Assembly: GCA_947480335.1 (NCBI GenBank) | Contig: CANKCB010000012.1 | Span: 527 to 64,526, forward strand | Length of the DNA: 64,000 nt | Direction of reading: 5' to 3' | From: Gammaproteobacteria bacterium | GTDB taxonomy: Bacteria > Pseudomonadota > Gammaproteobacteria > Eutrophobiales > Eutrophobiaceae | In this document: piece after piece, positions 23,878 through 50,699 of the stretch | Numbering within the stretch: the first letter of the stretch is position 1 | Layout of the letters: the number at the start of each line of letters is the position of its first letter | The notes under the pieces: model-generated | Told to the model about the DNA's origin: nothing | The model's input: only the letters and a program-made list of their open reading frames with translations | The model's database searches: none | Position numbers and translations under genes: made by a program

Positions 23878-25788
23878 ATGCACACAATCATCAGATACAC
23901 TCTTATTATACTGAGCATGATGTTCTGCTCATGTTTTGTGCAGGCCCAGACCAACACAACAACTTTGCGACCAGGCGCCCCTGACACGATTATCTACAAC
24001 AGCAAAATCGTCACCATGGATGATGCTTCCTTTTCATCATCACCCGGTACGATAACGCAGGCAATGGCCATCCTCGGCCATGAAATTCTGGCACTCGGCA
24101 GTAATGAACAAATCCGGGCGCTGGCAGACAAGCATACCCGGCAAATCGATCTGAAAGGTCGCACTGTGATGCCCAGTTTTATCCTCACACATGGCCACCC
24201 GACCGATCGAGTATGGGAATCTGGCTTCACTTCGTTGCGACATGTCCTGCCTGAAGGCAATGAATATATCGTGATTCGTCTGCTGAAAGGAACGCCGGAA
24301 GAACAAATCGCCAGTTTTGAGTCTGTACTAAAAGAGGCGGTCTCAGTGGCTAAACCGGGTCAGTGGATCATGGTTGGTTCTGATTGGGGTGCCAATTACG
24401 AATACATGTCACGTTTAATTACTGAATTCTGGAAACATATCAGTGTGGAACAACTGGACCGACTGGCTCCGAACAATCCGGTGCGCATCAAGAACAGTAC
24501 AATTGATGGCCTGCTGAATACACGCGGCGAAGAAGAAGTGAAAAAAGTATTCGCTGATTACACGGCTCGTGGCAATCGCGGACCAACCGGACGCATGCTC
24601 GAACCGGATGTAATTCTGCACAACAAGGTCTCAGTCAACGCCGATCTGATTGAAGCAGAAATGTCGCTGTGGACTGCACACGGTATCACTGCATTTGGTT
24701 CAGCACCGTACACCTTGAATAATCTGGGAGCGCTATCGCAGCTGGATCGTGAAGGCCGTATGGCAGGTCGCTATGGCTGGAGCTATACCGGTCCTAATCT
24801 GGATTTTACCAGTATCAAGATGGTCTCTTCGTTACTGGGTAGCGGTTCTGATTATCTGTGGAATGTCGGAGCGCAAGGGGAATGGTCCGGCGGTGATTGC
24901 ACCACTATCGCCGCACCGGAAAAAGTAAAGAAACACGAAAGCTGCGCACTGGGTAATGGAGATCCTGGCCGCGAAGAAAAGGAATTCATCGTGCGCACTG
25001 GCGGTCGCATTGCTGCCATGCACTCGGGTGGAGACAAGGACATCGACAACCTGCTTGATATCATTGAGGAACAAAGCAAGGCCGCAGGCATGAGTCTGGA
25101 GGATATACGCAAACGTCGACACACCTTTGATCATTCCTCCGGAGCACCACGCCCGGATCAGATCCCGCGCATCAAGAAGCTCGGCATGATGGTCAGCATG
25201 TTGAATACGATGCTGTGGGAAAATAACCGTTCCTATGACGCCTCGTACCGGGTTAAGAACTATGGTGAGGAATATGCTGGCTGGATTGTGCCACGGCAAA
25301 GTCTGACCAAGGCCGGTGTGATGAACTCACAGGAAATTGACCGGCCCTTGCCGCAGTTTGTGTTTTATAACGTCTGGGTCGGCATGACCAGATATAACGA
25401 AGCCTGTGGTCGTGCATTCGGTCAGGAAGAAGCAACCGATCTGGTCACGCAGCTAAAAGCATTAACCATCTGGGGCGCACATTATTTACTACGTGAGAAA
25501 CGCTTTGGTTCGCTTGAGCCGGGCAAACTGGCTGATTTCGTGGTACTGGATCAGGATATCTTTACCATCGATACGAATAACATTCCTAAAACGAAAGTAT
25601 TGATGACCATGCTGGGCGGCAAGATTGCCCATTTGCTGCCAGTACTTGCAACAGAAATTGGACTTGAACCAGCGGGGCCAGCCACCTGGCCTACAAAACC
25701 GCTGGAAAACCGGTTTGTTTTCAAGGGGCCGCCCAAGGTTTGCCCGGCATTCAAACCGGACGGTTTCCCGGGCCGGGTACCGGAATAA
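23878..25788 (+). CDS. Exported amidohydrolase-3 (YtcJ-like), full length
   Basis: IDLKGRTVMPSFILTHGHP, MHSGGD, HTFDH, GSLEPGKLADFVVLD; signal peptide. Confidence 0.88.
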   Translation: MHTIIRYTLIILSMMFCSCFVQAQTNTTTLRPGAPDTIIYNSKIVTMDDASFSSSPGTITQAMAILGHEILALGSNEQIRALADKHTRQIDLKGRTVMPSFILTHGHPTDRVWESGFTSLRHVLPEGNEYIVIRLLKGTPEEQIASFESVLKEAVSVAKPGQWIMVGSDWGANYEYMSRLITEFWKHISVEQLDRLAPNNPVRIKNSTIDGLLNTRGEEEVKKVFADYTARGNRGPTGRMLEPDVILHNKVSVNADLIEAEMSLWTAHGITAFGSAPYTLNNLGALSQLDREGRMAGRYGWSYTGPNLDFTSIKMVSSLLGSGSDYLWNVGAQGEWSGGDCTTIAAPEKVKKHESCALGNGDPGREEKEFIVRTGGRIAAMHSGGDKDIDNLLDIIEEQSKAAGMSLEDIRKRRHTFDHSSGAPRPDQIPRIKKLGMMVSMLNTMLWENNRSYDASYRVKNYGEEYAGWIVPRQSLTKAGVMNSQEIDRPLPQFVFYNVWVGMTRYNEACGRAFGQEEATDLVTQLKALTIWGAHYLLREKRFGSLEPGKLADFVVLDQDIFTIDTNNIPKTKVLMTMLGGKIAHLLPVLATEIGLEPAGPATWPTKPLENRFVFKGPPKVCPAFKPDGFPGRVPE

Positions 25789-36608: not shown

Positions 36609-36666
36609 ACAATGATCGGGTATGATCATTCATCATATTTATCTGCATTTATCAGGAGTATCAAGT

Positions 36667-38481
36667 ATGCGTAATTTTCGAATGGTATTACTCACGCTGG
36701 GACTGACCACTGTCTACCAGTTGGCTGATGCACAGGACCATTTATCTGCTGAACAACAGAAGATGACGGCTCAGGAACGCAATCTGGTATATGCCCCCTG
36801 GGACCCGTCTCAGATGCCTGAATTACGAAAAAAAATCGGTTTGATCGGGCCAGGTACGAAAACCCCTTTTCCACAAGCCCGTTTCCCCAGCTATCTCAAA
36901 ACACCGGAAAGCGTGGAAGAACTGATGCCACAAGCCCAATATGCCGTTCAGCAAAAAGGCGGTCGTTCACCTTTGGGGCTGGTTGATCCAGGTGACATTG
37001 TTTTAATACCGTTGCCACATACGGCAGATCCTCTGGTTCAGGAAGCGATCAAACGCGCCTTCACCGCAAGACGGGTAGAAGTAAGATTGATCTATGAATA
37101 CGAGCTGGCCGGAATTTCCAAAGAAGATCTGGATACGATTACCCGGATTCAAAATGTATTCAAGGCCGGTGATGGACAGCAGGAACTGAACTACCTGCAA
37201 ATCACCGGTGCAATGGATAACTGGGATGCGGCCGTGAAATGGACCAGGGATCACGATCCGGTATTGGCTGACGCGACATGGCCAGCATTTAAATACCCTA
37301 ACGAAAGAGTGGAAACACTGGCAAAATATTTCCAGAAGCTGATTGATGCAGCCGTAGTCAAGTACCTGGATGAACATCCTGAAGTGAACAAGGTATTCTG
37401 GCGTACTGGTGGCAGACCCTTTGCCATGCACGCATTGAAACATCATGCCCAGAAACTGGTCGGTAATTATACTTACCTGAATAATTTCGACATCATGAGT
37501 AAGGTCCCGGCCTATCCGTCAGATGTCTGGCGCATGATTGAAGGCAAGATGATTGAGCCGATGGCCTATACCGATCGGGTTGAAGTGACTGACCCGGAAG
37601 GCAGTGCCTTTTATTTTGAATTGACGCCAGAGCAGGCAAAAATCTGGTCGCAAGGCTCTTATCTGCAGGGTCATATTTTCATGATCCCTTCCCAGTCATC
37701 GGGTATTTATCCGTTCTCGTTTATTTCATATCCGGCACAGAATAATGACTGGCTGCCAACTATCCAGATGACCACTGCAAATGGCGTGATTGCTTCAAGC
37801 AATAGCCATGCATCCAACCATCCGCGCATGGAAATACATATCAAAAATGGTTATGTGCAGGACGTCATTGGCGGTGGATTCTATGGTGATGGTTTCAGGT
37901 TATGGCTGAAATATCCCAAAATCAATGAATTGACCTGGCCGTTCCAGAAGAATCCGGGATTCTGGTGGTTGTTTGAAGCAGGTACCGGTACCAATCCAAA
38001 ATACTTCAAGCACCCGGGTGAAATGCTGGTGGGTGATAACCTGTCTGAACGCAATGCCGGTGGTGTCATACACTGGTCATTCGGCGCTGAAGTAAAAAAC
38101 GGTCCGGAAAAGGACAAGGAAAAATCAGCACGTTCACCTGATGCGATCGAGTTCGGCAAGCAGAACCAGGTGCCTATCGGACACGCCATGCATAATCATA
38201 CCCTGATGCCCACCTACCAGATTCGTCTGCATGATTCTGGCAAATGGCAGACGGTCATTGAGCATGGTCAAATCATGGCCAGCAATGATCCGGAAGTACG
38301 TGCGATAGCATCACGCTATGGTAACCCGGACGAGATATTGCGTAGGGACTGGATCCCTGAAATTCCGGGCATCACCGCACCGGGTAATTATAACAAGGAT
38401 TATGCCTCCAACCCCGGCAAACACTGGCTGAAATGGGCGCACAGCATACTCGACAATACTAATAAGTACATGGGTGAATAG
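36667..38481 (+). CDS. Exported protein with a C-terminal M29 aminopeptidase/NicX-like region
   Basis: Signal peptide from ATG 36667 (AGGAG RBS); VEVTDPEGS, I.IKNG.V.DV.GG, FEAGTGTNP, SER..GVIHWSFG, HNH. Confidence 0.6.
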   Translation: MRNFRMVLLTLGLTTVYQLADAQDHLSAEQQKMTAQERNLVYAPWDPSQMPELRKKIGLIGPGTKTPFPQARFPSYLKTPESVEELMPQAQYAVQQKGGRSPLGLVDPGDIVLIPLPHTADPLVQEAIKRAFTARRVEVRLIYEYELAGISKEDLDTITRIQNVFKAGDGQQELNYLQITGAMDNWDAAVKWTRDHDPVLADATWPAFKYPNERVETLAKYFQKLIDAAVVKYLDEHPEVNKVFWRTGGRPFAMHALKHHAQKLVGNYTYLNNFDIMSKVPAYPSDVWRMIEGKMIEPMAYTDRVEVTDPEGSAFYFELTPEQAKIWSQGSYLQGHIFMIPSQSSGIYPFSFISYPAQNNDWLPTIQMTTANGVIASSNSHASNHPRMEIHIKNGYVQDVIGGGFYGDGFRLWLKYPKINELTWPFQKNPGFWWLFEAGTGTNPKYFKHPGEMLVGDNLSERNAGGVIHWSFGAEVKNGPEKDKEKSARSPDAIEFGKQNQVPIGHAMHNHTLMPTYQIRLHDSGKWQTVIEHGQIMASNDPEVRAIASRYGNPDEILRRDWIPEIPGITAPGNYNKDYASNPGKHWLKWAHSILDNTNKYMGE

Positions 38482-38487
38482 ACTCGT

Positions 38488-39363
38488 ATGCGCTATTCAA
38501 TAAAACGTAATTTGCTGAATCGTTCGTCGAGGCAAACCCGGCTCTGGCTATCCACCCTGGCAATGTTTTCCCTGCTCTGGTGTCAGTTAGCCAGCGCCGT
38601 GGAGCTGGATGTACCGTATGTCGAAACGCCGGACGATATCGCCACGCTAATGATGGATATGGCACAGATTACGCCAGAGGATTACGTTATTGACCTGGGC
38701 ACAGGCGATGGTCGTCTGGTTCTGGCTGCCGTAAAACGAGGCGCTACCGGACTCGGTGTGGATCTGGATCCGCAACGTATCGAGGAAGCCAATGCAAATG
38801 CCCGCAATGCGGGTGTAACAGACAAGGTCAAATTCGTCATCGGGGATCTGTTCAAGACTGATATCAGCCAGGCAACAGTGTTGACATTATTTCTGAACAG
38901 CGAAGTCAATATGCGACTCAGACCAATACTGTTTGAGCAACTTAAACCCGGCACCCGTGTGGTTTCTCACAACTTTGATATGGAAGATTGGCAACCGGAT
39001 CAGCAGCAAGAGCTGATGGTCAATGACCGGAATAACTACTATATACACGATATTTTTTACTGGGTAATTCCTGCCAAGGTAGAGGGTGATTGGCAATGGC
39101 AGATGGGCAAGGACCAGTTTCAGATGTCTGTCAGCCAACAGTTTCAGACTATAGAAGCAGAACTCCGGATCAATCAACAGACGCTCATCGTCAAAAATGC
39201 CACGGTAACAGGCACAGAATTGAAAATCACCGCTGTTAATGCTGACGGCAGTCAGGAATATATATTGAATGGACAGGTCACGGATAACAACATCACTGGC
39301 ACTATCAGCTCGGGGTTTGCTGGTGGTGACAAGCCGACAAACTGGCATGCCACAAGAAAGTAA
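38488..39363 (+). CDS. Class I SAM-dependent methyltransferase with signal peptide and C-terminal beta domain
   Basis: LDVPYVETP, VIDLGTGDGR, LKPGTRVVSHNF; hydrophobic leader ending ASA. Confidence 0.88.
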   Translation: MRYSIKRNLLNRSSRQTRLWLSTLAMFSLLWCQLASAVELDVPYVETPDDIATLMMDMAQITPEDYVIDLGTGDGRLVLAAVKRGATGLGVDLDPQRIEEANANARNAGVTDKVKFVIGDLFKTDISQATVLTLFLNSEVNMRLRPILFEQLKPGTRVVSHNFDMEDWQPDQQQELMVNDRNNYYIHDIFYWVIPAKVEGDWQWQMGKDQFQMSVSQQFQTIEAELRINQQTLIVKNATVTGTELKITAVNADGSQEYILNGQVTDNNITGTISSGFAGGDKPTNWHATRK

Positions 39364-39403
39364 TCAGCACAGCAAGTTATACTTCAACTCGCTGCCAATA
39401 CAG

Positions 39404-40156
39404 TTACTCGGGGTTTAACACCCCGCCATATTGAGAGGTCGATGCGGCCGCCGCCGGCTCCGGATTGGTTGCTGTGGATGTAGCTGGTTCTTCTGCCAGA
39501 GTAGCGGCCAGACTTTCAAATCCCATATTTTGCAACCATTGTCGCAGATGGAACCTGAAGTCTGCGCTTGCCGTCCGTTCATTAAATTTTGCTTCAGCTG
39601 CGACCAGTTTTTCGGTTGTCTGTTGCAATTTTCTGTAAACCAACATCTTGTCCAGATAGGTGTCCGTCAAATCAAACATGTAGGCGGTAATTCCATCGGC
39701 ATCCAGATCACTGGCAAAGGCTTCCTGACTTTCCATGTCTGCAATGTAATCGATTAGTTCCATGGCAATTTCTATCACATGCATACCAGTAACCGAACGG
39801 CCAGCCTGTGGATTGTCTTTCAGCGTGCTGGGCAACTGCAGGGAGATACCATCGGCCTGTTGCATATGCAGTAACATGCCATCTACTTCTTCCTTCAATA
39901 CTGTCAGACTGACTTTTAGCTGACGTAATTGCGGATCAGGCCATTCAGTAACTTCTCTTCTTTCCAGTGCGATATCACCAATAACCTGTTTGACCTGTTC
40001 TATCGATTGCTCGACCTGGTCATTTTTGTTGTCAATCATGAAGCTGTTCCACGGGCCCTCGCCATGGGCATAAGAACATACAGGATGGATCAGCATTAGA
40101 ACTGATATCAACAGAGACAAGTAGTTTGGAGGATTAGTTTTCATAAGCGTCGTCAA
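39404..40156 (-). CDS. Hypothetical exported, mostly helical protein
   Basis: 250-aa ORF with a signal-like leader (..VCSYA/HGEG) and a low-complexity A/T/E tail; last gene of the receptor-amidohydrolase run. Confidence 0.7.
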   Translation of the reverse strand: MTTLMKTNPPNYLSLLISVLMLIHPVCSYAHGEGPWNSFMIDNKNDQVEQSIEQVKQVIGDIALERREVTEWPDPQLRQLKVSLTVLKEEVDGMLLHMQQADGISLQLPSTLKDNPQAGRSVTGMHVIEIAMELIDYIADMESQEAFASDLDADGITAYMFDLTDTYLDKMLVYRKLQQTTEKLVAAEAKFNERTASADFRFHLRQWLQNMGFESLAATLAEEPATSTATNPEPAAAASTSQYGGVLNPE

Positions 40157-40202
40157 TCTGGCGTACAGAATAACAGACAGGTGTGGGTTGAGGCTATCGA
40201 TG

Positions 40203-40230
40203 CTGGCGGCGGTAAGCTTACCGCCGCCAG
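40203..40230. repeat. Perfect 28-bp GC-rich palindrome
   Basis: CTGGCGGCGGTAAGCTTACCGCCGCCAG, intergenic. Confidence 0.7.
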
Positions 40231-40255
40231 ATCGTTTAATATTTTACTGCCTGCT

Positions 40256-41590
40256 TTACTTTGAGGCGACCGGTGTTTCCAGCTGTACCGGTGCGTCCTT
40301 GTCAGTCCAGACCAGTTCACCATTGATGAACGTCATCGTAACCTTGTTCTTGGAAATGTCCTCATCCGAACCGGACAGATAGTCCTTGTCGAGTACGACG
40401 AAGTCGGCATATTTGCCTTCTTCCAGACTGCCAGTCATCTTGTCCGAGAACATCGAGAAGGCTGACCAGATCGTTACCAGCTTCAAGGCAACAACACGGT
40501 CAACGGCTTCAGCCAGGTTTATGACTTCACCGGTCTTGTCATTCTTGCGGGTAACAACCGCTTGCAAGCCTTCAAAGCCACCGTATTCAACTGCAACGTG
40601 CACACCAGCATCCAGTGCCGATTTGATTGGCGCAATCTGGGTTATATCACCACCCATATAGCGTTTTACGAAACCGGGTTCATCGTTAAATGCGCGATGC
40701 GGATCAACGACGAGCGTGAAATTGTATTTCTTGGCAACTTCATGCATCTTCGGATCATGTCCCAGCAAGGTACCATGTGCAAAGGTATGACGCATCGAAC
40801 GTACACGTTCCAGTGTCAGATCACGATTAACCGCCATGGCCTTTTCAACATACTCACCGGCCGTCAGGATCATGCCAGGACCTACACCGTGCATACCGAC
40901 AAAACGCCAACCTGACTGCAAGGCACCAACCAGCAATGCCTCTGTTGAAGCCGAAGCTACGTCCGGACAGTTTTCCATTCTGGGATCTGACAAGGGCTTG
41001 AAGCCATGCATACAAGGACCATTAACGGTATCGCCATCACCTTCAGAACCGACACCACCGAGCCAGAGCCAGGGATTACCATCTTCCATCTTGGTCCAGA
41101 AATAACCACGGTCAGAGTAGAAGGCACGTACATGCTCATCACCATAAATAGGCTGACGGGCCTGTTCAAAATGCCAGCCGAACCGAACCGGTAACTTACC
41201 GTCTTCCCGCAACAGCAGATACATCGCGGAAACTTCAGTGGCCTTGTCCAGACGTGATTCAAACTGGGTAATACCCTGTGGCCAAAGTGCAGTCTTCACA
41301 TGTTCCTTGAAGGCCTGTCCGAGTTCATAGGGCGATGGTGCGGCACCCATGGCGACTGTCTGGAAATGGCTCCAGGGCGGGGAGGTCGTCATAACCACAC
41401 GTTGTCCGACGTTTTCAACACCCGGGTTACTTGCCTCAAGACCTGAGCGCAAGGTCGGCCAGACTTCCATAATGTGCGTTACGGCTGATTCATTCAGCAA
41501 GCGTGCACGATGCCCAGCCATTACCACGCCGGAAACCAGCAGGGTCATGGCCAGAATTACTATCTTTGTACCAGTTTTGTTGATATTCAT
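40256..41590 (-). CDS. Amidohydrolase-3 (YtcJ-like) C-terminal part with its own signal peptide
   Basis: GITQFES, GMHGVG, RHTFAHG, GSLEEGKYADFVVLD; no N-terminal HxH region. Confidence 0.85.
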   Translation of the reverse strand: MNINKTGTKIVILAMTLLVSGVVMAGHRARLLNESAVTHIMEVWPTLRSGLEASNPGVENVGQRVVMTTSPPWSHFQTVAMGAAPSPYELGQAFKEHVKTALWPQGITQFESRLDKATEVSAMYLLLREDGKLPVRFGWHFEQARQPIYGDEHVRAFYSDRGYFWTKMEDGNPWLWLGGVGSEGDGDTVNGPCMHGFKPLSDPRMENCPDVASASTEALLVGALQSGWRFVGMHGVGPGMILTAGEYVEKAMAVNRDLTLERVRSMRHTFAHGTLLGHDPKMHEVAKKYNFTLVVDPHRAFNDEPGFVKRYMGGDITQIAPIKSALDAGVHVAVEYGGFEGLQAVVTRKNDKTGEVINLAEAVDRVVALKLVTIWSAFSMFSDKMTGSLEEGKYADFVVLDKDYLSGSDEDISKNKVTMTFINGELVWTDKDAPVQLETPVASK

Positions 41591-41655
41591 TTTTACTTAC
41601 TCCTTCAAGCTGCGTTTGGTTTGTAGTGTCGTACTGACAACAAATTCATGCCTGC

Positions 41656-42420
41656 TTATTTTTCAAATTCAAACGTGAATAATTCTTCAATGACGGGGTC
41701 GCCATTCTCAGCCTTGGTCACGTGATACCAGACACCGGGTGCCTTATTGCTGATGTGGATACCACCACCACTCATCAATACGGCCGGGTTGTCCGGAATG
41801 ACTTCACTCAATTCATCGGTACCGATAGGTGCATCACCTTCTTTTGGTGCACTCATCATGAACGATACTGAACCCAGATCCGGAAATTCTTCACCGTTCG
41901 GGAACAGTTCGATACCTATCCAGGCGGAAGGATCAATTTTCTCACGGGCCTGTAATGCGCCGACAGCCTTGGCCACCTTGGCCATGGTTTCTTCAGCATT
42001 TTTGGCCACCACGAGATTGATGTAGTAACCCACCAGTGCTCCCGGCAACTTGAACATATGACGGGCAATATCTTCCATCGCACCCTGTGGGTGATGGTGA
42101 TTGTTGACGATACCCGGAATAACGGTCTTGCCTTTCAGATCCATCACTTTGGTGTTCGGTCCTTTCAGTGCAAGCATGTCCTTGCTCGAACCGATTTTCA
42201 GAATCTTGCCATCACGCACAGCCATCGCTTCAGCAATAGTGCCAGGATTGCTGTTATAGGCAGTATCATCAATGGTGATTATCTTGGCGTTGTGGACGAT
42301 TAAATCAGGATACTTGACCAGAATGTCAGGAAGAGCCTGAGCATTGGCATTGGATGAAACCAGAGTTACAAATGACAAGATTACTGCGAGTGTTGGTGCA
42401 AGAATCAGTTTACGCATCAT
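41656..42420 (-). CDS. Amidohydrolase-3 (YtcJ-like) N-terminal part with signal peptide
   Basis: PDLIVHNAKIIT, AEAMAVRDGKI, DLKGKTVIPGIVNNHHHP; ends shortly after PDNPAV. Confidence 0.85.
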   Translation of the reverse strand: MMRKLILAPTLAVILSFVTLVSSNANAQALPDILVKYPDLIVHNAKIITIDDTAYNSNPGTIAEAMAVRDGKILKIGSSKDMLALKGPNTKVMDLKGKTVIPGIVNNHHHPQGAMEDIARHMFKLPGALVGYYINLVVAKNAEETMAKVAKAVGALQAREKIDPSAWIGIELFPNGEEFPDLGSVSFMMSAPKEGDAPIGTDELSEVIPDNPAVLMSGGGIHISNKAPGVWYHVTKAENGDPVIEELFTFEFEK

Positions 42421-42476
42421 ACTACCCCCTTTACCTCAATGAATTAACACATTAAACCCTGTACCCAGAGTCTGGA

Positions 42477-42505
42477 AAGGCCCGATCCTTCTGGAATCGG
42501 GCCTT
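42477..42505 (-). terminator. Hairpin after the TonB receptor (attenuator or mRNA stabiliser)
   Basis: AAGGCCCGAT...ATCGGGCCTT 10-bp stem with only a short U tail. Confidence 0.55.
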
Positions 42506-42528
42506 CGCAAACCAACTAACAGACTAAA

Positions 42529-45243
42529 TTACTGAAAATTATAGTGGAACTTGATGCCATAGGTAATGAAATCACTGGTATCCCGATTACGGCTTTCAAA
42601 TGCTTCCGGGCTCAGGTCGTTCTCTATGTGATAAGACGGATTCGGGTGGAACAGGTTATGGGCATAGGCTGACCATTTCCAGTTCTCATCGCTATCACCG
42701 AATGAGGCATTCAGGCTCATATCACCATGTTTGTCCATCATGCTTACCTTGCTAAAACCTGTGTTGTCGGTGATATAACCATCCGAGTAGTAGGCATTGG
42801 CATTAAAGCCCAACTGATAGTTGGTCAGGAACGGCATAGTGTAGTCTGCATCCACCACAAACTTCCAGTCAGGCGAGTTCGCACCCTGTTCACCACTACG
42901 GTCAATTACACCGGCAGTGGCAGACGTCAGTACGCAGCCAGTAGCCGATGGGTTGGCTACTTCAACTTCGGTACAGGTGGAGATGAAGTCTACCATCGTG
43001 TTCTTCATGTACACGCCACCACCTCGCAGTGTCAGATTATCCGTCGCTGCATAATCCAGCGAGAATTCAATACCCTTAACTTTCTGTTCACCTGCATTAG
43101 TGAATGAAATAAAGGCGTTAAATTCGAGCGCCTGTGTTGCGCCAATTTGCAGGTCGGTGATTCTGGTCTGGAATAAAGACACGTCGTAACGTAAACGTCC
43201 ATCCATCACCTTGCCTTTCGCACCTAACTCCATATGCTGGGCATATTCCGGGTCAAACTGGAACTCCTCGTATGCCTTATCAAATGCGCAGGTACTATTG
43301 CAAGTTGCGGTCGCTGCAGCAGCAGTCGGTATGGTTGCCAGACTGGCATCTGCACCACCGGCTTTGAACGACTCTACGTACTTACCGTATAAGGTATGAT
43401 CATCGGTTAAGCGATAAGTCACACTGAACTGTGGGTCGATCTCGTCACCTGAGAACACACCTTTAGGTCCAGTAATACCATCCCAGTTATTGGCAACTGG
43501 CGTTCTGATGCCGGTATAGCCAATGGCTGTCGCGCCATTCCATACGCTCTGACCATTCAGGGTACCCGCCGTAAGGGCCTGCGGGTTCGCAGCAACCTGT
43601 GCAGCTGTACATCCGAAAGCAGCTGTAGCTACGCCTGTGCAACCTGAGCCAGATCCATTTGCCGGGGTAGTAATTGCACCCGTGACATTGCTACGGACAA
43701 TCCAGCGGTCAGTTGAACCCCAGATTGCCGTAGTCTTTTTAACACGGCTGAAACGTCCACCGGCGCTGAGTGTCAGCTTGCCATCCATAAATCCGTTGTA
43801 GGATAGATTGGCAAACGCACTCTTCCAGTTGCCATCACCGACCATGTCCTTGAAACGTATGGGTTGCTGGGCATTCGCACGCAAGAACAGTGCCTTGTAA
43901 TTTTCCTCGATTTTCTGGGTGTACAGACCAGCCATCCACTCCCAGTCTCCGCCTGTGGCTGAAGAAGCCCGCAGTTCCTGACTGATTGCATCATAGTTAT
44001 GATCGCGATACTGCGTATTGGACAGTGTCAAACCATAACGATTTTCACGCAGGGTTTCGCGTTCAAACTGATCATAAGATGTCAGTGAGCTCAACGTTAT
44101 GCCGTTGTCCAGTTCATAGCTGAGATCAAGGTAGGTGCTCCACGGGGTCAGTTTCTCATAACCCTCGGTCACATTCGTACCCGCATAGGCCTGCATCAAC
44201 TGATTGCCGACATCGCGAATATCAAACGAAACCAGTTTGTCAGTATCACGGAAGGTACCGGTTGGGGCAAAGAAGGGGCCATCCGAGGATCGACCGATCG
44301 GTGCACCTTTATCGTCACAATCCGGCAATGGAGTGAAATTAATCTTGCTGCTACCTGTACCTGCACCTGTACCTAACGGCGGAGCAAAGTAAACGCTGGT
44401 AAAGTTACCTGGAGTGGTGGTTGCCGTCATACGCTGACAAATTGCCGTACCTTCAGCACCCTTGTTCAGGTCTGCCGTGTCAAACTTGGCTGTGGCCTGG
44501 AATGCTTCAGTCGGTTTCCACTGGGCAATAATACGACCAGCCTTGTTTTCGTAGTTGGGGAATTTATCTCCTGAAACCACATCCTGCAGATAACCGTCTG
44601 CGCTGTCGTATTTAGCCGCGACGCGAATACCAAATGTGTCAGTAACAGGTCCACCGGCAGCCGCTTCAACTACCTTGGTACCAAAGTTGGCGACTGAAGC
44701 GTCTACATAGCCTTCCCATTCAGGGGTTGGCTTGCGGCTGGTGATGTTAAACGCACCGGCAATCGCATTCTGGCCGAAGTAAACCGGCTGCGGTCCTTTC
44801 AGGATTTCAACCTGTTGTACGTCCAGGAATGAAAGTTTAATCATCGAGGTACGGGCATAATGCACGCCGTCGAGGAAGATCGGGGTTGACTGTTCAACGG
44901 TAAACGCGTCGGTGGTCGCTGCACCCAGACCACGTACAGACATACTGGGTCGTAAGTGTTCAGGCTCAACGATAACTGTCGGAGTAAACTGTGCCATTTC
45001 ATCCAGTGCGCGGTATCCCTGCTGTTGCAGGAAATCACCGTTAATTGCTTCAAGAGAAATCGGTACGTCCTGCATGGACTGTACCCTGCGCTGCGCAGTT
45101 ACAACGATTTCTTCCAGAGCAGCCTGAGCCATAACCGGACTGGTACTGACTGCGGACATGGTCATCACGCCTGCAATGGCTGAAACGATGGCTGTGTATA
45201 CCGAAGACTTGCGGTATCGATTTAGTTGAACTGTCTTATGCAC
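42529..45243 (-). CDS. TonB-dependent receptor
   Basis: LEEIVVTAQRR..SMQDVPIS, VEILKGPQ..FGQNAIAG, FDPE; ends FHYNFQ. Confidence 0.95.
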   Translation of the reverse strand: MHKTVQLNRYRKSSVYTAIVSAIAGVMTMSAVSTSPVMAQAALEEIVVTAQRRVQSMQDVPISLEAINGDFLQQQGYRALDEMAQFTPTVIVEPEHLRPSMSVRGLGAATTDAFTVEQSTPIFLDGVHYARTSMIKLSFLDVQQVEILKGPQPVYFGQNAIAGAFNITSRKPTPEWEGYVDASVANFGTKVVEAAAGGPVTDTFGIRVAAKYDSADGYLQDVVSGDKFPNYENKAGRIIAQWKPTEAFQATAKFDTADLNKGAEGTAICQRMTATTTPGNFTSVYFAPPLGTGAGTGSSKINFTPLPDCDDKGAPIGRSSDGPFFAPTGTFRDTDKLVSFDIRDVGNQLMQAYAGTNVTEGYEKLTPWSTYLDLSYELDNGITLSSLTSYDQFERETLRENRYGLTLSNTQYRDHNYDAISQELRASSATGGDWEWMAGLYTQKIEENYKALFLRANAQQPIRFKDMVGDGNWKSAFANLSYNGFMDGKLTLSAGGRFSRVKKTTAIWGSTDRWIVRSNVTGAITTPANGSGSGCTGVATAAFGCTAAQVAANPQALTAGTLNGQSVWNGATAIGYTGIRTPVANNWDGITGPKGVFSGDEIDPQFSVTYRLTDDHTLYGKYVESFKAGGADASLATIPTAAAATATCNSTCAFDKAYEEFQFDPEYAQHMELGAKGKVMDGRLRYDVSLFQTRITDLQIGATQALEFNAFISFTNAGEQKVKGIEFSLDYAATDNLTLRGGGVYMKNTMVDFISTCTEVEVANPSATGCVLTSATAGVIDRSGEQGANSPDWKFVVDADYTMPFLTNYQLGFNANAYYSDGYITDNTGFSKVSMMDKHGDMSLNASFGDSDENWKWSAYAHNLFHPNPSYHIENDLSPEAFESRNRDTSDFITYGIKFHYNFQ

Positions 45244-45600
45244 AATAGCACCCCCAAAAAATGTAGAGAGAATTTTAAAAAATATGTCTGCTGATCATTC
45301 CATCTGGCCGACGTAAAACCTGTTTCATCTGCCTGACATCTCATTCACGATAACGAGTCATAAACGTCGGGCAGACGAATGAGTGTGCGCAGATTACAAC
45401 TATATTGTGCAGATAACAACAGCAGCTTTATTGTGCGTCACAGCAATTAATCAGTGGATTTTAATGCAGTGATAACGATTTTAATCACGGAACAATTCAG
45501 TTTTATTTACCCGTAATACTGTCTGGTGTGACATGTATACAACAGTAAACAGCGTGGACATTTAGCGATCTATGCAATTGTGCAAAAATTAGGGATATTC

Positions 45601-46092
45601 TTAAGCCCCGAACAAGATGCCTGTGTAAAGCTTGTGACCAAGCAATACCACAAATAACAGATACAGGACGGCGGATAAACAAAAAGTGATCGTCGCCGTT
45701 TTCTTGAGTGAGTTTCCACCTGTACGTATAAATGCAAACAGAAATACCGGGGCTGTAACTTCAAATCCCACCAGATAAATACCCAGAACAATGGCGCCCA
45801 GCCAGGATATACCAATAATTTCCTTATGAAGTAGCGCCTTCTTTTCCAGACTGGATGTGGAGACTTCGGCAGGCTGCAGCGTCGTCAGGGAATGTCTGTA
45901 ACGTTGTATCTGCAGTATTAATTCAGCGCTGGTTAACCCCACAAAGATCCAGCCTATCAGCCGGGGAAACAAGCCACTGCCACCTTCAAAGTCAAATGCC
46001 ATAACCAGCACAGTAACTGCTATGGCCAGCATTAATGCCGCAACGAACAAAAGTACCAGTTGGCTGGCTGTCGGGGTATCAGAATGACTCAT
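45601..46092 (-). CDS. tctB: Tripartite tricarboxylate transporter small subunit
   Basis: Four TM segments, FP motif, YLVGF, LYLLFVVLL; follows tctA. Confidence 0.82.
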   Translation of the reverse strand: MSHSDTPTASQLVLLFVAALMLAIAVTVLVMAFDFEGGSGLFPRLIGWIFVGLTSAELILQIQRYRHSLTTLQPAEVSTSSLEKKALLHKEIIGISWLGAIVLGIYLVGFEVTAPVFLFAFIRTGGNSLKKTATITFCLSAVLYLLFVVLLGHKLYTGILFGA

Positions 46093-47588
46093 ACACTGAC
46101 CCTCTTACGTGCACGGATTATCTGGAAAAAACGCAAGGACAAAGCGGCCATACAGATTAAAAAGATTATCAGTGTGGTCTTGTCACGGAAAAATCCCATT
46201 CCGTCTCCCCCAAACATCAACATCGATTGTGTGTAGTTTTTCTCCATTAACTCAGCCAGTACAAGTGCGATGACCACCGTAATACGGGGATAATCAAACT
46301 TTCGCATCAAGTAACCCAATATTCCAAAAATAGCCGTGACAAAAGTATCGCCCACGGAATTTCGAATTGTAAAAGCGGCTACGAATGCAATAACCATAAT
46401 TGAGGGTACGAGCACTGTTATATTAATCTTGGCCACCTTGATGATATATCGTGTCGACATCAATACGATGACGTTGCTCAGAACGGTGGCTATCAGAATC
46501 GCAATGATCAGGGTAAAAATTGTCCATTCACGCTCTATCAACAGCATCGGCCCCGGATTCAAACCATGCAGGATCAGCACGCCCAGAAAGATTGCCATTT
46601 CAGCGCCGCCTGGCATACCAAACGCCAGAGTTGGTATAAGAGATCCACCATCCTTGGCATTATTGGATGCCTCCGGTGCAATCACGCCGCGTATATCACC
46701 CTTGCCAAAATTTTCATTGTTTTTACAGGTGGTGGCTGCAAAGGTATAAGCCATAAATGAACCCACCGTGCCGCCGACGCCCGGAATTGCACCCATTACC
46801 GTTCCAATCGCAGAACTGTACATAACCAGTTTCCATTCCTTGAACGATTCAACAACACCATCCCAGATTCCGGTGATATTTTCATCGATCCCATCTTTAG
46901 CTTTTGCTGCCGATTCATTCGTTACGTACAGAGTCAGCATTTCAGAGATAGCAAATAATCCTATCAAGGCAGGAACCAGAGACATGCCATCCCACAGATA
47001 ATCAATGCCAAAGGTATAGCGCTCTGAACCTCCGATATCATCGTATCCGATAAAACCTAAAAACAGGCCGGCACATCCCGCTATCAGACCACGCAGCATA
47101 TCTCCACCCGCCGCAGTCAATGCGGTGAGACCCAGTACAGCCATCATGAAAAAGGCAGGTGGACCAAACCATAATACGATGGCCTTTGCCACCGGTAGAA
47201 TTGCTACAAGAACCGCCAGACCGAAAACACCTCCAATTGTTGATGCGCCAGCTGCCGCACCGATCGCAAGTCCAGCCTTGCCTTGTTGTGCCATCGGATA
47301 ACCATCAAAGCAGGTCGCCGCATTTGGAGCTGTACCTGGTGTGTTCAGCAATATCGATGTAACCGCACCACCGGCCGAGACCGCGCCCATGACTCCACCC
47401 ATCAGGATGATTGCCTGCTCGGGCTCCATACCAAACGTGAGCGGTAATAACAATGCAATCGCCGCTGCACCACCCAGACCCGGAACAATGCTAAACATGA
47501 TGCCTACCATCACGCCGATCATCAGATAAAAAATATTGTAGCCATCCCCTATCAAATAGAGGACGGCTGTAATCATTGAATCAAACAT
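46089..47588 (-). CDS. tctA: Tripartite tricarboxylate transporter large subunit
   Basis: SILLNTPG, DGYPMAQQG, APEASNNA, IPTLAFGMPG, PGP. Confidence 0.95.
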   Translation of the reverse strand: MFDSMITAVLYLIGDGYNIFYLMIGVMVGIMFSIVPGLGGAAAIALLLPLTFGMEPEQAIILMGGVMGAVSAGGAVTSILLNTPGTAPNAATCFDGYPMAQQGKAGLAIGAAAGASTIGGVFGLAVLVAILPVAKAIVLWFGPPAFFMMAVLGLTALTAAGGDMLRGLIAGCAGLFLGFIGYDDIGGSERYTFGIDYLWDGMSLVPALIGLFAISEMLTLYVTNESAAKAKDGIDENITGIWDGVVESFKEWKLVMYSSAIGTVMGAIPGVGGTVGSFMAYTFAATTCKNNENFGKGDIRGVIAPEASNNAKDGGSLIPTLAFGMPGGAEMAIFLGVLILHGLNPGPMLLIEREWTIFTLIIAILIATVLSNVIVLMSTRYIIKVAKINITVLVPSIMVIAFVAAFTIRNSVGDTFVTAIFGILGYLMRKFDYPRITVVIALVLAELMEKNYTQSMLMFGGDGMGFFRDKTTLIIFLICMAALSLRFFQIIRARKRVSV

Positions 47589-47617
47589 TGAAATTAAAGC
47601 TCGCGGTATGCTTGTTG

Positions 47618-48595
47618 TTATTGATTAGGATTATTGAGATTGGCCTTGAATTTCTCGTAATAGGTGAAATTATCATTGATCGCTTTAGCGGCATCTTCAC
47701 CATTAAGTGGAGCAACATCCATCGCAGCTCCAGTAGCGGCAGCAATAAATTCGGGATCAGCCATCGTCTTTGAAAAAGCATCCCTTAACTGGGCCAACAA
47801 GGCAGGCGCCATGTCTGGCGGTCCAGCAATTGAACGTTGAACGTTTAGTGGTGCCAGATCCGGATAACCAAGTTCGGCAAACGTTGCCACTTCCGGCAAA
47901 TGACTGCTGCGATTATTTCCAGTTACAGCCAACGGTCGCAGGCTGCCTGACTGGATATACTGCGTTGCGGTAGAGATTGGCGACATGGTGACATTGCCAT
48001 CTCCACGCACCAGAGCGACTAACTGATCTGTCGTACCCGCATAGCCGGTAAGAAATGTCGGATTTTTGCTCATTAAGCCCATTTGCTCGGCCATAATCTG
48101 GATGGCGGCCAGAACAGTCGTTCCATAACCGATCGAAACAAAGGTAATCTTTTCCTGGGCTTTCAGATCATCCAGCGTATTAATAGCGGATGCCGACTGA
48201 ACCAGCAGTACATAATCCTGTGATTCAACCCGACCTAACCAGCTTAATTTACGCAAATCATAATCAACTTTTTCACCTGTTATGCTCGGTAATACCAGTC
48301 CAGGAAGATTGAAAATTCCAAGTGTATATCCATCCGGTTTGGCGCGGTAAACAGTGGATGTGCCACGACGACCTCCGGTACCCGGAATATTCTCCGGCAA
48401 GACTGAAATACCTCCACCCAGATGTTTTTCAAAGAAATGGGCAAATACACGTACTGTCGTATCAAATCCTCCACCCGCTCCGTAAGGAATAACTATCGAG
48501 ATATTTTCCTGCGGAAACGTTTCTTCTGTCTTTTGTCCACATCCTGACAAAAGCACGGTTAATAACGTGAACAGCAACGTCATTATCTTTTTCAT
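47618..48595 (-). CDS. tctC: Tripartite tricarboxylate transporter binding protein (Bug/TctC), lipoprotein
   Basis: LLSGC lipobox; IPYGAGGGFD, ENIPG.GG, AKPDGYTL, LPEVATFAELGY. Confidence 0.92.
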   Translation of the reverse strand: MKKIMTLLFTLLTVLLSGCGQKTEETFPQENISIVIPYGAGGGFDTTVRVFAHFFEKHLGGGISVLPENIPGTGGRRGTSTVYRAKPDGYTLGIFNLPGLVLPSITGEKVDYDLRKLSWLGRVESQDYVLLVQSASAINTLDDLKAQEKITFVSIGYGTTVLAAIQIMAEQMGLMSKNPTFLTGYAGTTDQLVALVRGDGNVTMSPISTATQYIQSGSLRPLAVTGNNRSSHLPEVATFAELGYPDLAPLNVQRSIAGPPDMAPALLAQLRDAFSKTMADPEFIAAATGAAMDVAPLNGEDAAKAINDNFTYYEKFKANLNNPNQ

Positions 48596-48725
48596 TTGTT
48601 CACTCCCTTCATCAACGTCATACGGCGTAAGGTTACGATAGATTACTGATTAAATGCAAACGTATTTCAGCAGGAGAATATTGATAAAAAAACTGACAAA
48701 TACTGAACAATCGTTTTCAGCTTTT

Positions 48726-49661
48726 TTAATGCAACCCTTCGTGTGCATGGACACGCGCGATTGTAGCAAAATCACGTACCGGTTTTGCAGCCGGATCAAA
48801 CGCGGGTAACGCATCCCCAGCGACAGCGACACGTTCCATATGGCGCGGATGGGGATAATAGTCATTCACGGCATAATGCTGACACAGGCGATTATCCCAG
48901 ACCACCAGAGTGCCGGGTTGCCAGCTCAGACGATACTGATACTCGGGAATACTGGCCTGTTGATAGAGTATTTCAAGTAAATTGCGACTTTCCAAATCTG
49001 ACATGCCTTCCAGCCTCAATGTAAACTGGCGGTTCACAAACAATACCCGCTGCCGGGTTTCTGGATGGGTGATCACCACCGGATGGGATGGGTTAGGAAA
49101 CATTTCTTCCATCTGCAACAGTTGCGCACGTTTGGCCTCGTCCCCTTTATAAAGCACCCGGAAATTCTTGAAATCATGTAGCGCAGTCAAGCCAGTTATA
49201 AACTCACGCAACTTTGGACTCAGGCCTTCGTAGGCAGCACACATGTCTGCCCACATGGTATCGCCGCCATATTCGGGAATCTGCATGCAACGCAAAATCG
49301 TGAATTTGGTCGGGAATTGACGGAAGGTCAGATCTGCATGCCACACATCGGTTGATAATACGGGATGATCCTTGTCATTCTTGATAATTTGAAGCTCAGG
49401 CAGATCTTCACGCTGAGGCCTGAACGGGTTCTGTTCCAGTGGGCCAAATCGACGAGCAAACTCAACCTGTTGTTCTGTAGTGATATGCTGGTTACGGAAG
49501 AAAATCACCTTGTGTTCAAGCAGGGCGCTGTAGATACGCGAAAATGCGCTGTCAGCGAGTGGGCGGGACAGATCAATTCCACGAACTTCTGCACCGATTA
49601 ACCGGTGACAGCGGACGACTTCCGGTTCGCCGTTGATCTTGCCAGTCATTTCTGCACTCAT
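48726..49661 (-). CDS. TauD/TfdA-family Fe(II)/2-oxoglutarate dioxygenase
   Basis: IGAEVRGIDL, WHADLTF, GGDTMWA, HPVV..HPET, WDNR..QHYA. Confidence 0.93.
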   Translation of the reverse strand: MSAEMTGKINGEPEVVRCHRLIGAEVRGIDLSRPLADSAFSRIYSALLEHKVIFFRNQHITTEQQVEFARRFGPLEQNPFRPQREDLPELQIIKNDKDHPVLSTDVWHADLTFRQFPTKFTILRCMQIPEYGGDTMWADMCAAYEGLSPKLREFITGLTALHDFKNFRVLYKGDEAKRAQLLQMEEMFPNPSHPVVITHPETRQRVLFVNRQFTLRLEGMSDLESRNLLEILYQQASIPEYQYRLSWQPGTLVVWDNRLCQHYAVNDYYPHPRHMERVAVAGDALPAFDPAAKPVRDFATIARVHAHEGLH

Positions 49662-49703
49662 TCAGTTCATTATCCGGATAATCACGCCTTGACGACCATA
49701 GTG

Positions 49704-50699
49704 TTATTCGATGCGTCCGTGTATAGGGACAAACAATTCTTCTATTGGCATTTCCTTCGCAATGAAATTCTGCTGGCGCATGTATTTCACAAAGGCCTCC
49801 AGGGTAGGACGGTTTTCTTCAACGCCATAGGCCCACAGATCCTTGCCAAATATTTCATCCAGCTCATATAAATCATCATATAACCAGGGCAACATAGTGC
49901 GCTGAGCAGCGGAGAAATACATCTTGTCGAGCGCCCATTTTCTGGACTCAAGAAATGCCTTGAACAGACTGGTGGCTATCCAGCGGTTCTGCTCATAAAT
50001 TTCACGGCGAATCGCCACGGTGTGCATAATCGGATGAATCTTGTACTCGCGATAATATCGTTTTTCTTCCTCACGCGGATTGGCAAACAGTCGGGTGACC
50101 TTATCCTGATCAGTACGCAGAGAATCTGGCAGACGCGAGCCGAGCAACGCATCGATTTCACCGTCGCGGAGCATGTCAGACAATGATTTGTTCGAGGTGT
50201 TCTGCACGATGGTCACTGGTTTGAGCAACTTTGGCGGCTTGGGCGGTTTGCCATGTGTACCGGCCTTTTCCACCGCGCCCTGTACCCAGGTTACACCGGA
50301 CAGATCGACGCCATAAATATTTTCCAGATCGCCTCGTATCCAGATGGCCGCTGTCATCGTATATAACGGCACACCAATACGTTTGCCAGCCAGATCTTTT
50401 GGAGACTTGATTCCGGACTTGCGATTGATACAGATAAATCCATGACGGAAGGCTTTCGACGGAAATACTGGCAGGGCAACAAAAGGACTATTACCTTTCG
50501 ATGTCATTTCCACATGTTCTGACAGTGACAATTCCGACATATCAAATGCCTTGTCACCGACCATCCGATCAAATATTTCACGCGGGGCCTGTATTTCAAG
50601 ATAATTAAGGTCTATGCCTTCCACTTCTATCCTGTTGTAGGCAAGGGCTTCCATTCTGTCGTAAGGACCGCACGCAAAACTCAATTTCAATTTGGACAT
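49704..50699 (-). CDS. 4,5-dihydroxyphthalate decarboxylase-like protein (periplasmic-binding-protein fold, no signal peptide)
   Basis: ACGPYDR, FDMSELS, ALPVFPS..FRH, GVP.Y.MTAA.W.RG, PIMH, YGVEENR. Confidence 0.82.
   Translation of the reverse strand: MSKLKLSFACGPYDRMEALAYNRIEVEGIDLNYLEIQAPREIFDRMVGDKAFDMSELSLSEHVEMTSKGNSPFVALPVFPSKAFRHGFICINRKSGIKSPKDLAGKRIGVPLYTMTAAIWIRGDLENIYGVDLSGVTWVQGAVEKAGTHGKPPKPPKLLKPVTIVQNTSNKSLSDMLRDGEIDALLGSRLPDSLRTDQDKVTRLFANPREEEKRYYREYKIHPIMHTVAIRREIYEQNRWIATSLFKAFLESRKWALDKMYFSAAQRTMLPWLYDDLYELDEIFGKDLWAYGVEENRPTLEAFVKYMRQQNFIAKEMPIEELFVPIHGRIE

Follow-up and report, generated by a model that had tools for sequence, protein, structure and literature searches.

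Do two adjacent genes that encode different parts of one enzyme represent a damaged gene, or an enzyme made in two pieces? This question is raised by two open reading frames (ORFs), here termed N and C (Table 1), on the minus strand of a 64,000-nucleotide stretch of gammaproteobacterial DNA (GenBank assembly GCA_947480335.1, contig CANKCB010000012.1, positions 527 to 64,526; the whole stretch is hereafter called the window). Both are related to YtcJ-like amidohydrolases (family PF07969), and an initial annotation, made from the letters of the window, had taken them for an evolved split rather than the result of a frameshift or nonsense mutation. As judged from sequence comparison, the pair is real, conserved, and under selection: a known enzyme family occurs here in a two-gene form whose pieces are exported independently, and assembly of the two chains into one enzyme is strongly implied. 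Quite probably, N and C each encode one chain of a single periplasmic, metal-dependent YtcJ-like amidohydrolase.

Gene structure, conservation, and selection of the N/C pair

Neither chain corresponds to a whole amidohydrolase domain. The matches of C reach the last positions of amidohydrolase models (positions 291–471 of PF07969, E = 6e-19, 69.3 bits, gathering cutoff 29.7; positions 188–345 of PF01979; only the last ~50 positions of two NCBIfam models), and those of N cover the first 35–70 (positions 1–35 of PF07969, E = 2.5e-4, 21.1 bits, under the cutoff; just the first ~70 positions of 23 NCBIfam amidohydrolase models). No NCBIfam model exceeded its cutoff for N, C, or the products of two nearby genes, hyp250 and hyp619 (see below); in the ESM Atlas, C matched PF07969 clusters alone and hyp250 had no match, and structures were available there for neither. 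The best solved relative of C was PDB 3ICJ (E = 3e-15). A profile of the N-half had its best solved match in PDB 3GGM (E = 1.8e-9), covering the beta region and the HxH motif only. Both halves are covered by an unsplit, 636-aa paralog encoded in the window (23878–25788), of which residues 35–108 match N (46% identity) and residues 263–583 match C (28%). The start of mature C aligned with the segment that follows PNNPV in this paralog, which is where the initial annotation had placed it. PF07969 is also the family recorded for P0027, a naturally fused relative.

The residues that make up the metal site in this family are distributed over the two proteins, as the initial annotation had claimed. 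N contains PGIVNNHHHPQG (residues 102–113), and H108 and H110 were invariant in 40 of 40 N-halves, where they aligned with the DAHxH motif of canonical YtcJ-like members; together with the ORF and the match to PF07969, this agrees with the assignment of the N-terminal beta region and the HxH motif to the N gene. The similarity had been thought to end at PDNPAV. The motif is indeed present (SEVIPDNPAV, residues 205–214), but according to the ORF and the alignment the protein runs 40 residues beyond it. This tail is homologous to an insert of the ~700-aa unsplit relatives that is missing in the 625–666-aa paralogs and in canonical YtcJ-like proteins, and thus the gene break lies inside a lineage-specific insert. 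C, in turn, carries E183, H234, H272, E335, and a C193/C208 pair, as well as GSLEEGKYADFVVLD in its C-terminal region and the motif GSLEEGKYADF near its end, so that the later His motifs are found where they had been predicted. H234 and H272 aligned with the HAIGD and EH motifs (the His of strands 5 and 6) of 3ICJ and canonical members, and H27 and N33, invariant in 40 of 40 C-halves, aligned with the "DGH" His and the Asn of canonical members. In all 40 C proteins H27, E183, H234, H272, C193, and C208 were invariant and E335 nearly so (at least 90%). In sum, HxH resides on N, and the β5 and β6 His as well as the auxiliary "DGH" His reside on C. The invariant Cys pair probably forms a disulfide, which would fit an oxidizing compartment.

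Adjacent ORFs belonging to one family are the usual signature of a frameshift, and a pseudogene, an assembly error, or one protein made through programmed recoding therefore had to be considered. In contrast to the single polypeptide typical of PF07969, the two parts are separated by a stop codon (TAA in the window), a spacer, a dedicated ribosome-binding site, and a second leader, and this arrangement is conserved. In the window, AAGGAG ends 9 nt upstream of the ATG of the C gene; at seven of seven orthologous loci (A)GGAG precedes the ATG of the C leader, whereas the spacer measures 65, 56, 30, 73, 53, 56, and 63 nt, respectively. With a length varying between 30 and 73 nt, the spacer does not keep the two genes in a fixed frame relation, which excludes read-through and frameshifting. 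Logan DNA contigs from two studies, one of them 13.6 kb long, were identical to the window across 40200–42500, although they may include the source sample; the assembly error that the initial annotation had named as a possible refutation was thus not found. Metatranscriptome contigs from two libraries of two further studies, 93–96% alike to the window, covered most of both genes, and two of them span the N/C junction (41198–41777 and 41552–41861), with one base in an A-run of the spacer as the sole indel. The gaps in this cover of both genes (run X13) carry no evidential weight.

Conservation and selection likewise speak against a broken gene. When 5.8 billion proteins were searched with C and with N separately, C yielded 190 matches, with 78 clusters of 420–500 aa among the 120 matches listed (identity down to 36%), and N yielded 181, with 114 of 235–275 aa among the 120 listed (identity down to 40%); only four longer relatives of N were found at E ≤ 1e-20. 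The ~250-aa N proteins are called "hypothetical" in public records. An N orthologue (69–84% identity) was present in eight of eight other genomes of the genus, and so was the pair in the order N-then-C, with a C gene behind 15 of 15 N genes. In metagenomes, C followed N at 15 of 20 loci, the contigs of the other five ending or breaking too early. The same split in relatives, for which the initial annotation had proposed to look, is therefore widespread within the genus. At six loci read in the genus the gene order was TctC-TctA-TctB-(TonB receptor)-N-C-hyp250. The ratio of nonsynonymous to synonymous substitution rates (dN/dS; Nei-Gojobori) ranged from 0.030 to 0.072 for mature N and from 0.015 to 0.065 for mature C, based on the 9 and 11 of 21 pairs, respectively, with finite dS, the remaining pairs being saturated at synonymous sites. 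Both mature parts are under strong purifying selection. Distances between N proteins tracked those between the adjacent C proteins (Mantel r = 0.97, 24 pairs; 0 of 2,000 permutations as high), and 17 of the 24 pairs had the same nearest neighbor for N and for C; the pair is inherited as a unit. Considering the conserved pair, the low dN/dS (0.015–0.07), the leader and ribosome-binding site at seven of seven loci, the variable spacer length and frame, and the identical independent assemblies, a pseudogene, an assembly error, or recoding is extremely improbable, and the two genes are regarded as an evolved split.

Outside the genus the split type is rare among the genomes sampled. Elsewhere in the taxonomic family it occurred in one of 11 genomes of one other genus and in none of the 101 genomes in the remaining genera searched; none of 300 other genomes of the class contained it at E ≤ 1e-25. 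A scan of genome contigs with the C alignment returned mostly generic amidohydrolases, and one of 80 loci (L001) belonged to the split family. The source labels of the database matches were Woeseiaceae and unclassified Gammaproteobacteria, and the runs containing window DNA are freshwater and lake metagenomes. The genome from which the window derives (G000, 2.42 Mb) contains 24 ORFs of the amidohydrolase family. Two split pairs are complete, and a further C gene lies at the end of a contig; the remainder are three ~700-aa forms, fifteen 625–666-aa forms, and one 357-aa fragment. A leader-like N-terminus is present in 23 of the 24, and 13 lie within 8 kb of a TonB-receptor-like gene. With 10–41 matches per genome across the genus, exported PF07969 amidohydrolases are much expanded in these bacteria; the genome of the window also contains 19 TonB-receptor-like and 8 TctC-like ORFs.

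Table 1. Features of the N/C locus and its surroundings (window coordinates)
Feature	Position	Strand	Content and basis
N-subunit gene	41656..42420	-	254-codon ORF; leader, start of composite beta domain, barrel strand 1 with HxH, helical region, 40 insert residues
N-subunit leader	42340..42420	-	27 residues, ending in ANA before QA; ORF reading
HxH metal motif	42091..42099	-	codons H108-H109-H110; ORF reading, alignments
Spacer, N stop to C start	41591..41655	-	65 nt, with GGAG at 41600-41603; sequence reading
C-subunit gene	40256..41590	-	444-codon ORF; leader, auxiliary His27, barrel strands 2-8, C-terminal part of composite beta domain
C-subunit leader	41516..41590	-	25 residues, ending in VMA before GH; heuristic and comparison with fused forms
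Hairpin	40203..40230	-	perfect, 12-bp G+C, no U tail; after C stop, before hyp250
hyp250	39404..40144	-	secreted protein of unnamed family; ORF directly after C gene
TonB-dependent receptor	42529..45243	-	directly upstream of N; Pfam Plug and TonB_dep_Rec
TctB, TctA, TctC (tripartite tricarboxylate transporter), TauD-family dioxygenase, NMT1/SsuA-like binding protein	45601..50699	-	Pfam, synteny

Leader sequences and export

Both chains begin with what appears to be a type I signal peptide of the general secretory (Sec) pathway. The features looked for, by inspection and with a Kyte-Doolittle/charge heuristic, were a positive n-region, a hydrophobic core of ~10–15 residues, small residues at −3 and −1, and the lack of a twin-Arg motif and of a lipobox Cys. 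N and C have these features; the two leaders of the window contain neither RR nor Cys and thus neither of the excluded motifs. Accordingly, both the GGAG sequence and the Sec-type signal that the initial annotation had ascribed to the C gene were recovered, the latter as a 25-residue leader directly followed by GHRARLLNESA. These features are not peculiar to the window. A variable hydrophobic leader was present in 40 of 40 aligned N-halves, and among the matches listed 76 of 78 C-half clusters had a positive n-region, a hydrophobic core (a 10-residue window with a mean hydropathy of at least 2.27), and a small-x-small motif just before a conserved (G/A/S)HR; the two exceptions resemble truncated gene calls.

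The leaders evolve differently from the proteins they precede. For N, dN was 0.29–1.8 in the leader versus 0.06–0.18 in the mature part, and for C it was 0.14–1.25 versus 0.03–0.14. The sequence of the C leader thus appears free to change while its character is kept, as is the case for signal peptides. In fused relatives an unrelated linker is found at the place of the stop codon, spacer, and leader, and homology restarts exactly at the predicted N-terminus of mature C. The core of the C leader is strongly hydrophobic (mean Kyte-Doolittle value of 3.18 over 10 residues), which speaks for an uncleaved signal anchor that would tether the same two-chain enzyme to the outer face of the inner membrane. 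However, with ~12–13 residues the core is short for a membrane span, the small residues at −3 and −1 stand right before (G/A/S)HR in the 76 clusters mentioned, and sequence conservation begins exactly at the predicted +1/+2 position, His27. An anchored complex is therefore regarded as unlikely, and release of both mature chains into the periplasm is preferred.

Proposed assembly, metal site, and history of the split

The proposed route to the active enzyme would start with the synthesis of each chain with its own Sec-type leader, followed by export in the unfolded state and cleavage; both chains would then fold together in the periplasm. The small composite beta domain would be shared, with its first half coming from N and its second half from C. 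N would further provide barrel strand 1 and the HxH metal ligands, and C the auxiliary His at its new N-terminus, strands 2–8 with H234, H272, and probably E183/E335, and the probable C193–C208 disulfide. The topology of the amidohydrolase fold, with a composite beta domain to which N-terminal and C-terminal strands contribute and the strands of the barrel between, is well established.

Single-chain relatives also bear on this assignment. In maximum-likelihood trees inferred from the C region, one group comprised all split forms together with the ~700-aa unsplit forms and stood apart from the 625–666-aa forms (support 98–100); within it three split clades were robust (support 99–100). Clade A, which includes the window, has the unsplit P0027 as sister or near relative, and clade B has a pair of genes in genome G001; clade C has no supported position among the other long forms. 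A tree with a single split-only clade was rejected by the approximately unbiased test (p = 6e-98). The C-region tree requires three changes between the split and unsplit states, and it would fit one old fission followed by two re-fusions as well as three fissions at the same loop. Irrespective of which history applies, the tree indicates that the one-chain and two-chain states interconvert. At two loci (L138 and L140) an unsplit 696-aa form is located behind TctCAB, that is, at the position of the pair in the genus. It is argued from this position and from the interconversion that the two chains rebuild the same enzyme.

The break point coincides with a lineage-specific variable insert, and the single-chain sisters bridge the same place with an unconserved linker (in P0027 it is 25 residues long, in P0241 it consists of low-complexity sequence, and in the two tandem G001 genes it has 32 residues). 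The latter two genes (736–737 aa; locus L198, G001:C57) are unsplit sisters of split clade B. Toward its end, their linker is similar to the c-region that stands directly before AHR in the leaders of clade B, so that linker and leader may be homologous. The G+C content is flat across 30–52 kb (0.45–0.51) and gives no sign of recent transfer.

In some operons a single N gene is followed by more than one C gene. Four C genes follow one N gene in three related genomes (G003, locus L109; G006, L107; G007, L112), three do so at L135, and L001 contains at least four C genes. The gaps of 10–75 nt within these arrays leave no room for N remnants, and each C gene of the arrays has its own leader and all conserved residues. 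The copies are 60–70% identical among themselves but orthologous between genomes at 92–97%, with a dN/dS of 0.011–0.032. The shared N is not more constrained than the C genes (90–94% versus 92–97% identity). A single N chain that serves several C chains would explain why only C was duplicated once the split had occurred, and the split could then be a form of modularity: one exported N cassette (HxH and strand 1) would complete several diverged C chains, resulting in a set of specificities, and a secreted protein starting with His (hyp250, see below) could act as assembly or metal-delivery partner. This is put forward as a tentative explanation.

The multi-C operons bear on the opposite view as well, namely that C is self-sufficient or has another partner and that N acts on its own as a small periplasmic protein, such as a regulator or a remnant kept for a different role. 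Because of the one-N/four-C operons and the arrays with at least three C genes, a stoichiometric 1:1 pairing of N and C is not obvious, and these operons are equally compatible with C proteins needing no N; also, the site of C is already atypical in that the canonical bridging Lys is lacking. In opposition to this stand the facts that C has neither strand 1 nor the HxH ligands and lacks the half of the composite domain that is N-terminal; that HxH is invariant in all 40 N proteins, whose dN/dS is only 0.03–0.07; that, wherever the contig permitted a look, no operon with C genes was seen that did not start with an N gene; and that the single-chain sisters retain both parts. A C protein acting without N is thus improbable, and the two-chain enzyme remains the preferred interpretation.

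As aligned, the metal site itself deviates from that of canonical relatives. BwBSH1 is reported to have the ligands H110, H112, KCX373 (the carboxylated Lys), H441, H474, and D583 and the auxiliary H196 (10.64898/2026.04.05.716592; 10.64898/2026.04.05.716488), and H196, the "DGH"-type His, is treated there as an auxiliary catalytic residue (10.64898/2026.04.05.716592). Unlike canonical YtcJ-like enzymes, C has Gly181 in the column of the carboxylated Lys (strand 4), and the invariant E183, two columns on, is found opposite the Asp of the canonical K..DG (alignment A6). The Asp of the canonical GTD/STD motif (strand 8) lies two columns past the nearly invariant E335, an assignment that is ambiguous. 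The unsplit relatives of the lineage also lack the strand-4 Lys and have an ambiguous strand-8 Asp column. Across the whole lineage, split and unsplit, Gly in the Lys column is followed by an invariant SEG (C residues 181–187), and a Glu stands near the position of the strand-8 Asp (335). The lineage may therefore possess a metal site of a different type.

Several points weigh against a two-chain enzyme or limit what can be said in its favor. Beside the multi-C operons, the Gly in the carboxylated-Lys column and the ambiguous β8 Asp mean that, as aligned, this is not the textbook binuclear site. Linkage alone would also give the Mantel correlation, cleavage of the leaders was judged with a simple hydrophobicity/charge/AxA heuristic, the RNA-library contigs cannot prove a single transcript, and the argument from the fold is based on profile coverage and the textbook amidohydrolase fold.

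Neighboring genes, known systems, and implications

The genes around the pair suggest a role in uptake. At seven loci of the genus TctCAB (7 of 7), TauD (7 of 7), and the NMT1-like gene (6 of 7) are conserved upstream. An orthologue of the TonB receptor occupies the same place at L101 and L102, and at L103, L104, L120, and L121 a paralog is located downstream. The enzyme would probably act within a route in which a substrate enters via the TonB-dependent receptor, is hydrolyzed in the periplasm, and yields an acid product that is imported by TctABC. Rfam had no match at E ≤ 0.1 on 38000–50000 and thus gave no riboswitch clue to the substrate. Hydrolysis of taurine-conjugated bile acids by PF07969 enzymes is described in two preprints from 2026 (10.64898/2026.04.05.716592; 10.64898/2026.04.05.716488). 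Together with the TauD and SsuA/NMT1-like neighbors, this makes taurine or sulfonate amides or conjugates a first guess at the substrate, for which it is a weak hint.

Downstream of C, hyp250 is a probably helical protein for which no Pfam, NCBIfam, or PDB relative was found: nine Pfam families matched in one or two of 25 members each, with a best E of 7e-4 that is not credible, and the best PDB match had an E of 0.09. A search of 1.84 billion proteins yielded 31 representatives. Its first residue after the leader is an invariant His (25 of 25), it shares the phyletic pattern of the split pair, being present in 8 of 8 genomes of the genus and in 0 of 32 elsewhere, and it adjoins split pairs of two different clades at 13 loci. 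Possible roles are those of a third subunit or of a factor for assembly or metal delivery. The hairpin between C and hyp250 is part of a region with a predicted folding energy of −38 kcal/mol for a 103-nt stretch (z = −4.95). It was not called as a terminator in a pattern scan, and it could be an RNA-stabilizing, an attenuating, or a repetitive extragenic palindrome (REP)-like element. Promoter and terminator patterns were not found on the minus strand, with fewer sites than in shuffled sequences. Two genes on the plus strand follow: one (38488–39363) encodes a protein resembling S-adenosylmethionine (SAM)-dependent methyltransferases with a leader-like N-terminus, an unusual feature among SAM enzymes, and the other (36622–38481) encodes hyp619, a 619-aa exported protein of no known family that is also found beside unsplit forms in G001.

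The closest known systems are single-chain PF07969 proteins, among them 3ICJ and 3IGH from Pyrococcus, BwBSH1, the mBSH of Turicibacter, and N-substituted formamide deformylase. The pair belongs to the same family by profile, and its HxH, "DGH" His, and β5/β6 His align with theirs. Unlike these one-polypeptide enzymes it is encoded by two genes, each with a leader of its own, and it differs from canonical YtcJ-like proteins in the insert of 60–110 residues that the lineage of the window has behind PxNP. BwBSH1 and the Turicibacter mBSH are reported to be metal-dependent, taurine-selective bile salt hydrolases, and BwBSH1 is likewise Sec-exported (10.64898/2026.04.05.716592; 10.64898/2026.04.05.716488). 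With 81 residues, the chain of PDB 3GGM (Bacillus thuringiensis BT9727_2919) is much shorter than N; it may represent a natural stand-alone protein or an expression construct, and the literature search yielded no paper on it.

The classical multi-subunit enzyme of the amidohydrolase superfamily is urease, the subunit genes of which are separate or fused depending on the lineage. The pair resembles it in being, as far as can be deduced from sequence, heteromeric. Unlike in cytoplasmic urease, where the whole barrel and all metal ligands are contained in the alpha subunit, here the cut parts strand 1 and HxH from strands 2–8 and divides the composite beta domain; among urease chains, only alpha chains turned up in the search that gave 3ICJ for C. 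A possible analogy to the one-N/four-C operons is the amphibolic glutamine amidotransferase TrpG/PabA of Bacillus subtilis, one subunit of which is shared by several partners. However, its subunits are complete domains with separate active sites, whereas the exchangeable piece proposed here would complete one fold and one site. In agreement with the initial annotation, which knew of no such arrangement, no split or heteromeric PF07969 enzyme was described in the literature searched, supplementary files aside. The predicted fission, which parts strand 1 of a (β/α)8-barrel metalloenzyme from the remaining strands and places its ligands on two separately exported chains, would thus be new to that literature.

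Several consequences follow for the family. C proteins resemble truncated amidohydrolases, and annotation pipelines may flag N/C pairs as pseudogenes. For protein folding, the pair would offer a natural system in which to examine fragment complementation of triosephosphate isomerase (TIM)-type barrels and how unfolded chains meet and load metal in the periplasm. The one-N/four-C operons suggest that specificity may be diversified combinatorially. Finally, the expansion of the family and its proximity to TonB receptors in a freshwater gammaproteobacterial genus point to an uncharted use of amide-linked dissolved organic matter.

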